Positions 4,405 to 10,307 of a DNA stretch of 21,948 nt are shown piece by piece. The number at the start of each line of letters is the position of its first letter. Positions within the stretch are counted from its first letter, which is position 1. The DNA comes from a virus. Taxonomy: Duplodnaviria > Heunggongvirae > Uroviricota > Caudoviricetes. The notes under the pieces are model-generated. The model was not told where the DNA came from and did not search any database. It saw nothing but the letters and a program-made list of their open reading frames with translations. Location of the stretch: IMG/VR virus record IMGVR_UViG_2913147268_000003; one strand, 5' to 3'. A program made the position numbers and the translations under genes.

Positions 4405-4675
4405 TTTTCTCTTCACTCCGATATACAAGGATTACCACACCCCCTCTGCTGATTGCGCGAGCTGGATCCCCTGGTTCCATGCCGTCAATTCCGAAGGCTT
4501 CGGAAAACGCATTCATTGCCTTCTGGCGTTCATCCTGCTTACGGCGTTTATTCCATTTTTTCAGGAACAACAGCGACAGCCACCGTCCGCTGCAGAACAC
4601 GATGTAAAAATAACCAAGGAGCGCCAGGCCGACATTCAGGGCCGTTTCTATGGTTAGTTGTGAGTCAGTTGCCAT
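4358..4675 (-). CDS. Hypothetical small membrane protein (105 aa)
   Basis: ATG at 4673-4675 with an AGGTAAGAA site, 5 nt after the stop of the upstream gene. The N-terminus has a hydrophobic helix (LNVGLALLGYFYIVF) followed by a basic stretch. Confidence 0.35.
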   Translation of the reverse strand: MATDSQLTIETALNVGLALLGYFYIVFCSGRWLSLLFLKKWNKRRKQDERQKAMNAFSEAFGIDGMEPGDPARAISRGGVVILVYRSEEKNDDHKTTSRKNHISP

Positions 4676-4913
4676 TTCTTACCTGTTTAAGTAACTGGTT
4701 GAACATAACACTTAGGGGATTGCTGTATCCAAACGGCAGATTGTTTACGCAGTACAGAATCATTTTGTTTTTTTCTCCAGTTCGTACTATTAACCCATTC
4801 CACAATAACCGTGATAATTCATTACTGATAGAAGTTGCGCTTCTTCCAAGTGCGAGGGATATATCTTCTCTACTGCAATCTGGATTTTCCTGGATATACT
4901 CGATAACGGTCAT
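4665..4913 (-). CDS. Small putative winged-helix DNA-binding protein (about 82 aa)
   Basis: ATG at 4911-4913 (MTVIEYIQENPDCSREDISLALGRSATSISNELSRLLWNGLIV...) resembles small winged-helix regulators. The track ORF from 4955 has no ribosome-binding site and overlaps the upstream gene. Confidence 0.45.
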   Translation of the reverse strand: MTVIEYIQENPDCSREDISLALGRSATSISNELSRLLWNGLIVRTGEKNKMILYCVNNLPFGYSNPLSVMFNQLLKQVRNGN

Positions 4914-4923
4914 GTGGTCCCTT

Positions 4924-5505
4924 TTACTTAATATCTGTTTCGGATTGCATGCCATGAGTATTCATTTCGTTAATAATTTCATCCAGAAGGATTTCAAGCC
5001 CTTCTCGACCCATATCTGAAAGAATGAAACCTTTATCAGGGGAAGTAGTGAGCATTTTCTGATAAAGAAACAGCGCTCTTCCCATTCCTTCAGCTTCGCC
5101 GTATTTTTGAATTAAATTCCATTCAATATACTGTTGTAAGGCAAATCGAATGGGGCCGGGATATATCGTCATAAACCCATACATCCCGTTATATACCACG
5201 GCGTGTTCAGTTGTTCCGTGTTCATTCAGGATATCAATTGTGCCGTTCTTGTCTTCTTCTTCGTTGATGAATGTCGTCACATACAACCATCGCCACTGAG
5301 CAACCTTCATCTCAACCGGAAGTTTACCCAGTAATCCTGCTTCGTCGGCTTGCGCCAGACACTGAAGGATACGTAAACCTCGCACATTAGGAGTATCGAA
5401 TTCTCCGGCATCCAGACGACGTATGGCGTCGTGATAATCAATCGTCATACTGCCAGTTCGTATACCATTGGCTGTTGCTTCAGCCTGGAATTCATCGTAT
5501 TGCAT
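4924..5505 (-). CDS. Hypothetical protein (193 aa)
   Basis: ATG at 5503-5505 preceded by GAGGA. No family recognised from sequence. Confidence 0.55.
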   Translation of the reverse strand: MQYDEFQAEATANGIRTGSMTIDYHDAIRRLDAGEFDTPNVRGLRILQCLAQADEAGLLGKLPVEMKVAQWRWLYVTTFINEEEDKNGTIDILNEHGTTEHAVVYNGMYGFMTIYPGPIRFALQQYIEWNLIQKYGEAEGMGRALFLYQKMLTTSPDKGFILSDMGREGLEILLDEIINEMNTHGMQSETDIK

Positions 5506-5510
5506 GATAT

Positions 5511-5693
5511 TTATTCCTCATCTTCATCTGCTGGTGCAATAACGTCATATCCTGCCTTTTCTGCAATAAACAGGAATGTTGAAAGAGTTCCTACAAGTTC
5601 ATCGTCATGAACATGGCGAATGAATATTACTTTCCCGTTTTTGATGGTCAGCAATACTCTGGTTTGTTCGTGTTCTGCTGTTTTCTGATGCAT
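5511..5693 (-). CDS. Hypothetical small protein with acidic C-terminus (60 aa)
   Basis: ATG at 5691-5693 preceded by GGGAGA; its stop overlaps the ribosome-binding site of 4924..5505. Confidence 0.45.
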   Translation of the reverse strand: MHQKTAEHEQTRVLLTIKNGKVIFIRHVHDDELVGTLSTFLFIAEKAGYDVIAPADEDEE

Positions 5694-5887
5694 TATTATC
5701 TCCCGTATGCTTTACGCAGAAATAAGCAGGCAATATGCATGTAATTTTCACCGTATTGTGCAATAAGGCAGGCGGTCTTGTGTGATGCCATATTCTTTAT
5801 AAAAGTCACAATAAAGCCTCCTGTGGATTAAGGTTGTAACAATCCCCGGCGATAAAACCGCAATAAACGTTCAGGGCATATTTGTTG

Positions 5888-6253
5888 TTATTGCGCTAAT
5901 TCTTTTTCGGCAGCAGCTTTTGTATACTCACATGCAAAATTCAGAATTTCGCTGCCGAGTGTTTTCGTTTCGTGATTACTGGACATATGTAATACCTGTG
6001 TTGCATGCAATAAATGATAAACATTTACCGCAAATGAATCAGGCTCCAGGCAAATGCCTTCGTAATTATCTTGCTGTGAGGTTGTTTCTGTCATTGCTCC
6101 TGAAGTGCATACGAGCCTGTTTTTGACAATTCTCTTTTCTCTAATCACTATATCGGCAACATCTATTGCCTTTACAACCTCCGGGAGAAGTTCCGGGTTT
6201 GTATAATCAAAGTCATCAACATGGAGAACAGTTATGTTTTCGAACTTTTTCAT
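5888..6253 (-). CDS. Hypothetical protein (121 aa)
   Basis: ATG at 6251-6253 preceded by GAGGAA. The gene has its own upstream (6254-6381) and downstream (5694-5887) intergenic regions and the sequence looks AT-rich by eye. Confidence 0.5.
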   Translation of the reverse strand: MKKFENITVLHVDDFDYTNPELLPEVVKAIDVADIVIREKRIVKNRLVCTSGAMTETTSQQDNYEGICLEPDSFAVNVYHLLHATQVLHMSSNHETKTLGSEILNFACEYTKAAAEKELAQ

Positions 6254-6381
6254 GGTTTCCTCAGCTGACTTATATGTTCTGCTATATAGCGAGTCTCAGA
6301 AGTGTTTTCATATTAAGACTGTTTCCGCAATGATTGATAAAAATGTTCGCATGTACCTTGAGGGGCGAAGCGGCGATTATG

Positions 6382-6885
6382 TCACCATTGGTATTGGTTC
6401 TTCCGTAGAAGAGCTTCGCGAGATAAGGGGCAAACTTGTTGAGATGCGTCATGGTGTTGCTGCTCCTCACTTTTTGGTTGCTCCGGAGGAGTAACCTCAC
6501 CAGTTAACAGCCACATCGCATCGCAGCCAAGAATATTTGCCAGTGGGATAAGCATACTGATAGTTGGTTCATACTCTCCGCTCTCCCACTGGATGATAAT
6601 TTCTTCATCGAGATCGAGCAGCCTGGCGAGTTCGGCGGTTGTTAAGCCGCAGGCTTCGCGTTGGGTGCGAAGACGGTTGTTGATTGCAGAATTTTTGTTC
6701 TGTAAAAGCATTGCTGACGATAGCTTTCTGGATATGCTATTTGTCATATCCCATGCCAGTCCTGCGCATGACTCTATATCGCTAGAGAGCGTAGCATCAG
6801 GTGTTGCTTTTGCTATTAGTGTAATGAGGCTGCCGAGGTTTTTCAGTTCTTCGAGACAGTCAAGAGTTGTAGCTTTATTGATCAT
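6382..6885 (-). CDS. XRE-family helix-turn-helix protein with unknown N-terminal domain
   Basis: 167 aa, ATG at 6883-6885 with GAGGT upstream. The C-terminal half has a classic XRE HTH (GLTTAELARLLDLDEEIIIQWESGEYEPTISMLIPLANILGCDAMWLLTG). It is the first gene leftward of the operator-like region next to the repressor. Confidence 0.6.
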   Translation of the reverse strand: MINKATTLDCLEELKNLGSLITLIAKATPDATLSSDIESCAGLAWDMTNSISRKLSSAMLLQNKNSAINNRLRTQREACGLTTAELARLLDLDEEIIIQWESGEYEPTISMLIPLANILGCDAMWLLTGEVTPPEQPKSEEQQHHDASQQVCPLSREALLRKNQYQW

Positions 6886-6988
6886 GAGATGATACCTCAG
6901 TTACGAACTTTGTTTTATGGTAACTAAGGTATCAAGGTGTGGCAAGTGATTTTTGATACTTTGGTTTCTTTTTGTGTTTTGTTTCTGG
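6886..6988. promoter_or_regulatory. Candidate left operator/promoter region
   Basis: 103 bp intergenic region between the repressor and the first leftward gene. It contains TTGATACTTTGG (6953-6964), identical to a motif repeated at 7668-7742, and possible leftward -35/-10 hexamers (TTGCCA / TACCAT on the minus strand). Confidence 0.4.
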
Positions 6989-7645
6989 TCAGAAAATATC
7001 CCACCTGGCATCAACCACAACACCTACTATTTCGCAATCATTGTCCATTTCTATGATTGGATATTGTGGATTAAGGGGCTTTAGAAACGCCTTTCCCATG
7101 TCAGAAATATATTTTTTGAATGTTGCTTCATTGGTAGATTTTTTTCTGGCGATGACGTAACACCCTGAAAAAACTTCTTTATCTGGGTTGACAAGGATCG
7201 ACATTCCTTCAGGAAATGTTATTCCTACGGGCGAAGTCATTGAGTCTCCGTGCACTTCCAGCCAGAACCCCCTCTCACCAGCGTATTTTACAGAATGCCT
7301 CCAATTATCCTGATCATACATGTTGTAGTCATCACCAGAAGTTGCGAATAATCCTGCCTGAACCCAGTTAATTACAGGGTAAGAGTGTGCTGTGTCTCTC
7401 TGTGGGCAGCTCTTAACATTATTTTCCCAATGCTTATCTTTTTCATCTCCGTTCTGAAGCCACTGCGGTGAACACCGCAGTGCAGCTGCAACTTTAAAAA
7501 GGGTGTCACCGTTGAAACTTTTTGTAAGGCCTTGCTCGGCTTTACTGATTGCAACTCTGGTGATCCCAGCTTTTTTAGCCAACGCATCTTGTGTTAACCC
7601 AGCTTTTTGCCGTGCGTTGATGAGACGTTCACCTAAAGACTTCAT
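6989..7645 (-). CDS. cI: CI-type phage repressor (N-terminal HTH, C-terminal S24 LexA-like peptidase)
   Basis: ATG at 7643-7645 preceded by GAGGAG. N-terminal HTH (LTQDALAKKAGITRVAISKAEQG), a candidate Ala-Gly autocleavage site (VQAGLF), the S24 Ser motif (GDSM) and a downstream Lys (IARKK). The track ORF from 7720 is a non-supported N-terminal extension. Confidence 0.85.
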   Translation of the reverse strand: MKSLGERLINARQKAGLTQDALAKKAGITRVAISKAEQGLTKSFNGDTLFKVAAALRCSPQWLQNGDEKDKHWENNVKSCPQRDTAHSYPVINWVQAGLFATSGDDYNMYDQDNWRHSVKYAGERGFWLEVHGDSMTSPVGITFPEGMSILVNPDKEVFSGCYVIARKKSTNEATFKKYISDMGKAFLKPLNPQYPIIEMDNDCEIVGVVVDARWDIF

Positions 7646-7760
7646 TTTTCTTCTCCTCTCATGGCTGTTGATACTAAAGTAACAGAATTTCTTGATACTT
7701 TGGATTCCTGTGGTTAACATCGTTGAATAACAAAGTATCTGGTGTGAGACTAAAGAATGA
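7646..7760. promoter_or_regulatory. Candidate right operator/promoter region
   Basis: Three copies of a 12 bp motif: TTGATACTAAAG (7668-7679), TTGATACTTTGG (7692-7703) and an inverted copy CAAAGTATCTGG (7731-7742). A candidate rightward promoter is TTGATA (7692-7697), 17 bp spacer, TAACAT (7715-7720). Confidence 0.5.
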
Positions 7761-8796: not shown

Positions 8797-9459
8797 ATGA
8801 TCATTTCAAGACCAAATATTGATTCTGCAATTTCGGGACGTTACACTGTCTCCGCACCTTATAAAGCGGGTGCCGGGATTGGCGTCCTGAAATTGTCAAC
8901 GGCGATGTATGACGCGCCAGCGTCTTTTTTATCGTCCGCATTTGCTCACATCCAGATTATGGTGGGCTGGGCGGGGGCACCGAAAGGTGCGCCGGTCTCC
9001 GTTGACGCCGGTTACGCCAACCCCGTCCAGTTCACCACCAGTGAAATTGGCGTTTCCGGTGGTGGAAGTTTTTCACTGTCAACGGAGGCTGCCATCATGG
9101 CTACTGTCCTAACTTCCCCATTCCTAAAAATCGAAGTCGTCAACGGCAAGGCCGTTATTTTCTCCCTGCATGTTGCCTGCCATTTCAAGCGCATGCACCA
9201 GAACATCGTTGACAAAATCGAGTATCTGAACTGCTCACGCGAGTTTTTTACCCGCAATTTCATACCGGGTACTTATCACATCTACGGTGACTCCCTGCGT
9301 GGTTATTACATCACCCTTGATGGTCTGATGATGCTTCAGCTTGGGTTAAGTCTGCGCACAATGCGGTACTACGAGAGCTGTATTGAAGCATTCCATGAGG
9401 CTGAAACCGTCCAGGGTCACTCCGCGTTCCGTCGTAATCAACGGGAGGTGCACCTATGA
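8797..9459 (+). CDS. Rha-family phage regulatory protein (Rha-like domain in the C-terminal half)
   Basis: 220 aa ORF. The C-terminal half (KIEVVNGKAVIFSLHVACHFKRMHQNIVDKIEYL...GYYITLDGLMMLQLGLS) matches the Rha pattern. An internal ATG at 9098 with a GGAGG site is an alternative start. The N-terminal region is paralogous to that of 9456..10307. Confidence 0.6.
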   Translation: MIISRPNIDSAISGRYTVSAPYKAGAGIGVLKLSTAMYDAPASFLSSAFAHIQIMVGWAGAPKGAPVSVDAGYANPVQFTTSEIGVSGGGSFSLSTEAAIMATVLTSPFLKIEVVNGKAVIFSLHVACHFKRMHQNIVDKIEYLNCSREFFTRNFIPGTYHIYGDSLRGYYITLDGLMMLQLGLSLRTMRYYESCIEAFHEAETVQGHSAFRRNQREVHL

Positions 9460-10307
9460 TCCGCCACCAGCATATTGATTCTGCAATTCCGGGACGTTAC
9501 ACTGCTCAGGCACCTTATAAAGCGGGTGCCGGGCGTGGAAACCCGAAATTCAATATAGAGCACAACCGCGCTCATGCGGTTTTTTCGTGTCATGAGCATC
9601 GTTACACCCAAATTATGGTGGGGCGTGCAGGGCCAACTTCGGTTGGGCCGGGTTCTATGTTGACCGGTATTTCCACCCCTGTACGTCTCACCACCTATAT
9701 GGTCGTGGAAAGCCTTGGTGGTGAGTTCATTGAATTCAACATAGGGGCTGTCACCATGACTACTCTCCCAACCCAATCTCACCCTGAAATCACGATTATC
9801 AATGGTCGCGTTGTCACCACATCTCTTGCAGTAGCTAATTACTTTACTAAACGGCATGAGCGGGTTTTAGATAGAATTAGAAACCTCGAATGTTCCGCTG
9901 AATTTACTGAACACAATTTTGTGTTAAGTGAATACACCGACGCATCAGGCCGCAAACTCCCTTGTTACCAAATCACCCGCGACGGTTTTGCGTTTCTTGC
10001 CATGGGCTTCACTGGTAAACGTGCTGCCCAGTTCAAAGAGGCATACATCAACGCCTTTAACCTGATGGAGAAGAGTTTATCAGGTGCCGATGCGTCTGAT
10101 ATGTCAGCTGTCGCACGAAACGCCAGAGGCGTATACCTGCATTTGCGTGAAATCCATCAAATCTGGACAAGCCAGCTTTATCCAATGCTTAAGGCCGTTG
10201 AATCTCCGCTGGCTAGCAAACTGTACGACCGTGTTGGTGATGCTGTTTTTGGCGCTGCACTTGTTGATTCCAGGCTGAATGGTTCTGACAAGGAGGTTCG
10301 CCCATGA
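9456..10307 (+). CDS. Rha-family phage regulatory protein
   Basis: 283 aa with GGGAGGTG upstream; the start overlaps the previous stop. Clear Rha-like domain (EITIINGRVVTTSLAVANYFTKRHERVLDRIRNLE...CYQITRDGFAFLAMGFTGKRAAQFKEAYINAFNLME). Confidence 0.7.
   Translation: MIRHQHIDSAIPGRYTAQAPYKAGAGRGNPKFNIEHNRAHAVFSCHEHRYTQIMVGRAGPTSVGPGSMLTGISTPVRLTTYMVVESLGGEFIEFNIGAVTMTTLPTQSHPEITIINGRVVTTSLAVANYFTKRHERVLDRIRNLECSAEFTEHNFVLSEYTDASGRKLPCYQITRDGFAFLAMGFTGKRAAQFKEAYINAFNLMEKSLSGADASDMSAVARNARGVYLHLREIHQIWTSQLYPMLKAVESPLASKLYDRVGDAVFGAALVDSRLNGSDKEVRP

Follow-up and report, generated by a model that had tools for sequence, protein, structure and literature searches.

Some repressors are opposed by a small helical protein that imitates their oligomerisation domain, as in the SinI–SinR system of Bacillus subtilis and the AimX–AimC system of the arbitrium phages (bioRxiv 10.1101/2025.11.23.689978). 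Here we describe a block of small genes in a viral stretch of 21,948 nucleotides (IMG/VR record IMGVR_UViG_2913147268_000003; Caudoviricetes), referred to throughout as the window. The block, at positions 4924..6253, lies beside the immunity region and encodes, on the minus strand, proteins of 193, 60 and 121 amino acids (aa) together with a 37-codon open reading frame (ORF), the mini-ORF. All four ORFs are present as the original prediction, made from the letters alone, had listed them, and none has an assigned function. The reality of the genes, the selection on them, their operon position, their homologies and their neighbourhoods are observed; the biochemical roles proposed below are all inferred. 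We tentatively read the block as four genuine genes of the early-left operon under the promoter PL: a SinI/AimX-like hairpin, a translationally coupled microprotein, a 60-aa orphan partner of a ParE-like toxin and a stand-alone 193-aa protein. The value of the finding lies in the microprotein and in the pattern formed by the hairpins and a neighbouring helix-turn-helix (HTH) regulator, both of which are testable in the phage PhiR49_2 and relevant to phages that convert their hosts to Shiga toxin (Stx) production.

The block in the early-left operon

The 103-nt gap that immediately follows the repressor gene cI contains three copies of a 15–16-nt operator motif (6890-6904, 6920-6934 and 6953-6968) and the cI–cro gap two (7669-7683 and 7692-7707), three plus two sites in a pattern search where shuffled sequences gave 0.03-0.05 by chance. 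The rest of the window holds a single near-match, with a mismatch. The left and right operator regions, OL (6886-6988) and OR (7646-7756), share two operator types, TGATACYNNAGTWAC in three copies and TTGATACTTTGGWTTC in two, and a promoter scan placed a leftward promoter-like site (TTGCCA-17-TACCAT, 6945..6917) over the middle OL site. Because the operators locate OL/PL at 6886..6988, the block is downstream of PL, behind a gene for a DicA-like HTH regulator, and operator and promoter positions together make it part of the PL early-left operon. The leftward order is cI, the 167-aa HTH gene, the 121-aa ORF, the mini-ORF, the 60-aa gene and the 193-aa gene, followed by a MarR-like ORF, a DUF4752 gene, an Ea22-like gene, xis and int. 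No gene for an N-like antiterminator is evident.

In lambda, rexAB occupies a slot cotranscribed with cI. Here OL/PL directly follows cI and the block lies beyond the next gene, outside the cI-to-OL/PL interval, and so does not hold a rexAB-type position. The layout suggests that the block is silent in the lysogen and transcribed solely once the CI repressor is removed; the operon, with the DicA-like regulator gene read first, would then be switched on.

A free-standing hairpin related to a regulator domain

The 121-aa ORF (5888..6253) is made of two unequal parts. Its last 68 codons evolve under strong constraint, with ω, the ratio of non-synonymous to synonymous change, at 0.05-0.3 (Nei–Gojobori method, used throughout), against 0.43-0.64 and a flat codon-position pattern in the first 53. 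The three longer ORFs had been taken as real genes, and purifying selection bears this out except for that 53-codon extension. The extension carries a stop codon in one relative (L005 among the numbered prophage and phage loci compared here) and is missing from the 65-66-aa forms of other prophages, and the RefSeq annotation pipeline PGAP calls only 5888..6094 (68 aa) as the coding sequence (CDS) in an identical RefSeq prophage. It is open in several diverged homologues, including P0063 (45% identical overall; 77% over residues 1-47). We regard it as probably translated in the window but dispensable. An AlphaFold 2 model of the whole protein contains helices at residues 71-89 and 94-120 with a predicted local distance difference test score (pLDDT) of ∼90, as against 60-75 for the extension, and thus gives the conserved domain the fold of a helical hairpin. 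The protein belongs to the functionally unannotated families phrog_5451/4587 and had no Pfam match even at E up to 1.

The clue to the hairpin comes from the HTH regulator encoded next to it. The regulator matches HTH_3 at E 1e-10 and the DicA subfamily at E 1.5e-12, the latter below cutoff. Its HTH core is nearly invariant across prophages that differ in cI, the proportion of non-synonymous differences (pN) being 0.03-0.04 at a synonymous proportion (pS) of 0.6-0.69. At least four types can be told apart in its N-terminal ∼70 aa, and a second, C-terminal HTH is present in some versions (loci L003-L012). Residues 66-115 of the 121-aa protein match these N-domains in five loci (L003, L004, L007, L009 and L012) by BLASTP at 34-50% identity, with E values of 1e-5 to 1e-10 that derive from pairwise or small-set searches. 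Comparison of the hairpin with the regulator N-domains of sister prophages by hhalign returned a probability of 96.4% (E 1.3e-9). By this similarity the 68-aa hairpin is a free-standing paralogue of the variable N-domain of sister prophages' HTH regulators. In all the E. coli loci examined that have such a regulator, one or two free hairpin genes come immediately after it, and in four sister prophages (L003, L004, L007 and L009) the free hairpin matches its own regulator at 45-50% identity.

By analogy with SinI and AimX, the hairpin would act as a modulator that binds the matching hairpin of a regulator and alters its oligomerisation. Several observations weigh against this proposal and the operon reading that frames it. 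The hairpin of the window does not resemble the N-domain of the resident regulator (hhalign probability 0.5%, BLASTP negative), which is of a different type, so that no cognate pair is seen in the window. Synteny across relatives may reflect common descent rather than partnership, and no SinI or antirepressor family was matched among Pfam and PHROGs. For the operon as a whole, dependence on PL is read solely from operator and promoter positions, and internal promoters may exist, although the promoter scan found no convincing promoter or terminator in the 128-nt and 78-nt gaps. Since the hairpin is unlike this prophage's own regulator domain, its partner may lie elsewhere, either in the regulator of another lambdoid prophage or in a target common to all hairpin types; among phage records no regulator matched the hairpin at better than ∼50% identity.

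These features can be combined, very doubtfully, into a 'lock-and-key' layer of control, in which a nearly invariant DicA-like core would carry interchangeable N-terminal hairpins and free hairpins of other types would serve as decoys, the 37-aa microprotein, a constant companion of the module, being another early-operon factor so far unrecognised. Were this true, a lambdoid or Stx prophage could use its decoys to disrupt, or turn to its own ends, the early regulators of relatives that share its host or superinfect it. In any case, the regulator/hairpin pattern offers a testable route to leftward-operon control in lambdoid phages without N, and possibly to cross-talk between co-resident prophages.

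A plainer alternative is that these are ordinary early-left filler genes, individually dispensable and without mutual interaction, the hairpin similarity being a trace of domain shuffling. It would account for mosaic junctions that fall exactly at gene and domain borders, for the mismatch between the hairpin and the regulator of the window and for the decay of the 121-aa N-terminal extension in some relatives. It does not sit well with the clear purifying selection on all four coding units, nor with the stand-alone hairpin genes that recur immediately behind the regulator in all E. coli loci examined, and we consider it unlikely.

Two further observations concern the surroundings of the hairpin gene. 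The genes ydfA, ydfB and ydfC, downstream of dicA in the Qin prophage, were considered as homologues and none matched. In phiP27 (L010 2915-3094, plus strand) and in the E. coli relative L005 (3414-3641, plus strand) an insertion widens the interval separating the HTH gene from the 121-aa gene; it bears an opposite-strand ORF (L09, 60-75 aa) that is absent from the window.

The 60-aa and 193-aa proteins

The 60-aa gene is under purifying selection (ω 0.16-0.23), and its product has the acidic tail ascribed to it. Homologues of 69-84 aa (43-51% identity) occur in three E. coli loci (L003, L004 and L008), a Klebsiella phage (L011), phi467 (L012), a metagenomic relative (L013) and phage LMessi (L018). 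Each of them is followed by a gene with a ParE_like toxin domain (PF24732, E 2e-15 to 2e-17), and the two overlap by 29 nt where both gene ends are annotated. The overlap coincides with an extra C-terminal tail of the homologues. The form in the window has no such tail, and there is no ParE-like coding sequence anywhere in the window. Thus a family found elsewhere in the antitoxin position before a ParE-like toxin would here be an orphan, and with modest confidence we take the 60-aa protein, from these sequence relationships, to be an antitoxin-position protein that has lost its toxin. Counting against this assignment, Pfam, NCBIfam and PDB profiles revealed no recognised antitoxin domain (ribbon-helix-helix, Phd/YefM, HTH or AbrB) in the protein, and about half of the loci with the family have no toxin neighbour, so that the link to ParE may be incidental.

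The toxin-bearing loci L003, L004, L008, L011, L012 and L018 carry an alternative cassette at the same operon position: the mini-ORF, a 119-aa gene (phrog_1737), a 71-84-aa gene of the 60-aa family, the ParE_like toxin gene (PF24732, phrog_1525, 29-nt overlap) and a 130-141-aa gene (phrog_1886). The members of this cassette are uncharacterised save for the toxin domain.

The 193-aa gene begins 5 nt after the 60-aa gene, its Shine–Dalgarno sequence GAGGAA lying inside the codons for the acidic tail of the 60-aa protein, and is likewise constrained (ω 0.11-0.21). Homologues at ∼41% identity are found in Klebsiella and Aeromonas phages. An exhaustive hidden Markov model (HMM) search of 1.84 billion representatives returned 101 clusters, mostly stand-alone proteins of ∼190-215 aa, the rest being shorter fragments and a few longer outliers. 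When the longer matches were scanned against Pfam, no domain was found in any full-length match; one marginal, repetitive match (E 2.9e-5) has Pfam domains. A confident model of the 193-aa protein had no fold match in PDB or BFVD. As modelled, the protein appears to be a stand-alone family without structural relatives in these two databases, which makes it a reasonable target for work on structure and function. The idea that the 60-aa and 193-aa proteins form a toxin–antitoxin-like pair was set aside, their homologues being separated by other genes in Klebsiella phages and phi467.

The end of the 193-aa protein varies. The family usually terminates in ...G-M/I-P-x-x-P-x-x-H, with His as the last residue; the copy in the window (4924-4960) ends in ...HGMQSETDIK and other E. 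coli copies in ...HGMPEGQ. A MarR-like winged-helix ORF of 96 aa (4665-4955, minus strand) overlaps the 3′ end of the gene by 32 nt; it matches MarR_2 in Pfam at E 9.5e-5 and phrog_1687 at E 1e-24, and is left uncalled by PGAP in the identical RefSeq prophage but called in Stx1a phage records. The differing termini suggest that this end of the 193-aa protein was remodelled within the overlap with the ORF.

It had been proposed that the block carries cargo for superinfection exclusion, abortive infection or anti-defence; in one version of this explanation, the acidic 193-aa protein would mimic or inhibit a host defence, with the 60-aa and 193-aa genes as a two-gene unit. Such cargo is possible by analogy with lambda, in which the ral/sieB/kil/cIII zone has a comparable position, ral and sieB also lying just left of the immunity region. 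The block is low in G+C (0.39-0.43, against 0.475 for the window). The 121-aa ORF, which had been singled out as AT-rich, is indeed so (0.39), but is not distinctive within the block. The mini-ORF module followed by alternative cassettes (60 + 193 aa, or 119 + 71 aa + ParE-like toxin + 130 aa) resembles a hotspot, and the 193-aa protein, at pI 4.6, is acidic with an unmatched fold. Nevertheless, neither PADLOC, nor the structure searches, nor position lent the proposal positive support. PADLOC-DB 2.0 (5027 models) gave zero matches at E up to 1 for the 193-, 60-, 121- and 37-aa proteins, sequence and profile searches of Pfam, NCBIfam and PDB likewise returned nothing for the four, and structure searches gave no match to known anti-defence or exclusion proteins. 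The statement that the three larger proteins have no family thus holds for Pfam, NCBIfam, PADLOC and PDB but not for PHROGs, which place them in phrog_1515, phrog_340 and phrog_5451/4587. Literature searches on ParE-like proteins and prophages, phiP27 and DicA-like regulators found nothing on these genes. The 193-aa, 60-aa and mini-ORF families co-occur in Escherichia, Klebsiella and Aeromonas phages in the manner of backbone genes and not of sporadic morons. Finally, a location downstream of PL argues against the expression in the lysogen that exclusion or abortive infection needs. We therefore judge the cargo explanation improbable, while anti-defence during lytic growth may still be among the functions of these genes. 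The only positive evidence, a paralogue of a regulator domain and an antitoxin-position protein without its toxin, points away from defence.

A conserved 37-codon gene

The 194-nt gap at 5694..5887 contains the mini-ORF, which had been put forward as a candidate on account of its GTG start, an AGGAGG 7 nt upstream and a stop 2 nt before the next ATG; the sequence agrees on each point, the TAA (5696..5698) lying 2 nt ahead of the 60-aa gene's ATG at 5693. In nine aligned relatives the ORF is intact at 37 codons and starts with ATG, the GTG of the window being the exception, and the GGAG of the Shine–Dalgarno sequence is kept in most of them. In all, 11 related loci have the 37-codon ORF undamaged and with an ATG start. 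Compared with relatives whose DNA differs by ∼28%, the 111 nt show 30-31 changes, of which 9-10, 3-5 and 16-17 fall at the first, second and third codon positions. This corresponds to pS ∼0.71, pN ∼0.15 and ω 0.07-0.09, a value below that of any neighbouring gene tested, which places the mini-ORF among the most strongly constrained coding units examined. Because it is intact in relatives, with so low an ω and an excess of third-position changes, the mini-ORF is a genuine protein-coding gene, as had been suspected. Its translation is supported by the AGGAGG at 7 nt, a strong Shine–Dalgarno sequence from which it would be read and, at 2-4 nt from the following gene, translationally coupled to it. 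The product is probably a two-helix protein.

The family is widespread. An HMM of the mini-ORF matched every prophage or phage locus that spans the operon position (L001-L015) and had no match in the Qin locus of K-12. Homologues of 32-40 aa were recovered in phi467, in an unannotated gap of Klebsiella phage ST11-OXA48phi15.1, in the metagenomic relative L013 and in phage LMessi, and tblastn found the family in 43 phage records, including Cronobacter and Aeromonas phages and Salmonella Fels-1. The homologues have in common the motif A-Y-K/R-T-A-x-L ... A-x-L-F/Y-L-R/K-K-A-Y-G-K/R-stop; a 39-aa variant ending in ...AYGNNK is also known. The exact protein is encoded on more than 1000 contigs, where its sole name is 'hypothetical', and belongs to no Pfam or PHROG family. 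PGAP leaves the gene uncalled in the identical RefSeq prophage and in sister loci, and about half of the phage records that contain it leave it unannotated. In the stretch examined of the phiP27 record AJ298298 it is not a separate CDS; other phage records call it. The mini-ORF is hence a concrete case of a gene lost by automated annotation (RefSeq/PGAP, Pfam and PHROGs). The 90%-identity protein cluster that holds the 37-aa protein of the window also contains a 119-aa protein that is unrelated to it and whose gene comes right after the mini-ORF in sister prophages; read-through or fusion variants may explain the mixture, as may an artefact of clustering.

The gene moves together with the DNA upstream of it. 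Matches in other prophages begin exactly at the ATG of the next gene and run through a conserved segment of ∼56 nt upstream of the mini-ORF, covering precisely 5693..5865 or 5693..5920 of the window while the flanking genes vary. As these borders are identical whatever the flanks, mini-ORF and leader form one mosaic module. The conserved segment folded with RNAfold into no structure common to relatives; Rfam 15 gave no covariance-model match across 5450..7050 save a chance match to HOTAIR at E 3.2; and no convincing σ70 promoter or terminator was found in the 194-nt gap.

The arrangement raises the question of whether the mini-ORF is mainly a cis-acting leader (an upstream ORF) whose translation would bring ribosomes to the following gene or control it, for instance by averting Rho-dependent polarity or by means of an arrest motif at the C-terminus, its peptide having no function in trans. 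Whichever gene comes next, its start codon always lies 2-4 nt from the mini-ORF stop; the mini-ORF's last codons (GGG AGA/AAA) make up the downstream Shine–Dalgarno sequence; the most invariant stretch, L-F/Y-L-R/K-K-A-Y-G-K/R, is C-terminal and adjoins the stop; and the module includes the conserved non-coding segment. We find this reading quite improbable, since over most of the mini-ORF amino acids and not nucleotides are conserved (ω 0.07-0.09 at pS ∼0.7), the conserved part includes a central K-T-A-C-L-I-A-Q-H-G far from the stop, coupling alone does not need a specific peptide, and no stable conserved RNA structure hiding the downstream start was found.

Prophage context

Among lambdoid prophages, the window belongs to the phiP27 or yecE-integrated Stx-phage type. 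Escherichia phage PhiR49_2 is 99.3% identical to the window segment, and phiP27 and many Stx1a- and Stx2a-converting phages are related to it. The region is found in 324-340 of 5426 complete E. coli genomes (∼6%), chromosomal in all of them, and in the RefSeq record of strain THO-003 the identical prophage adjoins yecE/yecN. With this frequency among E. coli genomes and its presence in many Stx1a/Stx2a phages, the block belongs to the early programme of medically relevant prophages. PhiR49_2, which came from ECOR13, is an inducible, sequenced phage and can be used as an experimental system.

The features described are collected in Table 1. The true start of cI is probably at M26, which would make the cI–cro intergenic region ∼110 nt long. 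To the right of the immunity region, Rfam identified isrK followed by C4 antisense RNA in two tandem copies within 8854-9698 on the plus strand (8854-8930/8955-9042 and 9510-9586/9611-9698; 61-82 bits, all above the gathering score), adjoining RefSeq genes of the 'ash family' (8797..9459) and the 'Rha family' (9456..10307). The arrangement resembles a duplicated P1/P7-type c4-antirepressor immunity module carried by a lambdoid prophage.

Table 1. Features of the block and its flanks, in window coordinates
Feature	Position	Strand	Remarks
193-aa acidic protein gene (pI 4.6), phrog_1515	4924..5505	-	
60-aa acidic protein gene, phrog_340	5511..5693	-	C-terminus PADEDEE
37-codon microprotein gene (mini-ORF)	5696..5809	-	GTG start; pI 9.5 (basic)
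Shine–Dalgarno sequence AGGAGG	5817..5822	-	7 nt (CTTTATT) upstream of the mini-ORF GTG
Conserved non-coding segment, core ATCGCCGGGGATT	5823..5865	-	forms one mosaic module with the mini-ORF
Constrained core of the 121-aa ORF, 68 aa from M54	5888..6094	-	helical hairpin; phrog_4587
N-terminal 53-codon extension of the 121-aa ORF	6095..6253	-	own GAGGA Shine–Dalgarno sequence
DicA-like HTH regulator, 167 aa (phiP27 L10, phrog_4739)	6382..6885	-	first gene downstream of PL
OL/PL region	6886..6988	-	three operator copies and a promoter-like site
cI repressor (S24 + HTH)	6989..7720		longest ORF 243 aa

Comparison with known systems

The nearest relative with named genes is phiP27, whose L06, L07 and L08 are homologous to the 193-, 60- and 121-aa proteins at 65%, 51% and 96% identity and stand in the same order beside the repressor as in the window. 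The phiP27 gene families (PHROGs 1515, 340, 5451/4587 and 4739) are without functional annotation. Among the small proteins of the lambda PL operon, Kil, CIII and Ral resemble the 37-aa protein in being short, encoded early-left behind a strong Shine–Dalgarno sequence and conserved among relatives. The 37-aa protein is nevertheless shorter than these and has no similarity to any Pfam or PHROG family, theirs included; its C-terminal KAYG(K/R)-stop motif and its constant tight coupling to the next gene are its own. The 60-aa family recalls the type II toxin–antitoxin pairs of the ParD/ParE kind, its homologues in Escherichia and Klebsiella phages being likewise small acidic proteins whose genes directly precede a ParE_like gene and overlap it. 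The window differs in that it has no toxin gene, a 60-aa form without the tail and no known antitoxin domain.

The likeness to SinI–SinR and AimX–AimC is one of arrangement and domain relationship. As in those systems, a small, mostly helical protein (here the 68-aa core) is encoded beside an HTH regulator of the XRE/Cro-C1 type and shares homology with the helical domain that, in this regulator family, does not bind DNA. By Pfam, however, the hairpin has no sequence relation to SinI, SinR or AimX and falls outside the SinI/SinR family. The shared domain is N-terminal to the HTH here, whereas it is C-terminal in SinI–SinR and AimX–AimC. Instead of the CI repressor, the regulator concerned is a second protein, DicA-like and encoded by the first gene of PL. 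Lastly, the hairpins in these prophages are of several types, shuffled from one prophage to another, such that the one in the window is mismatched to its resident regulator.

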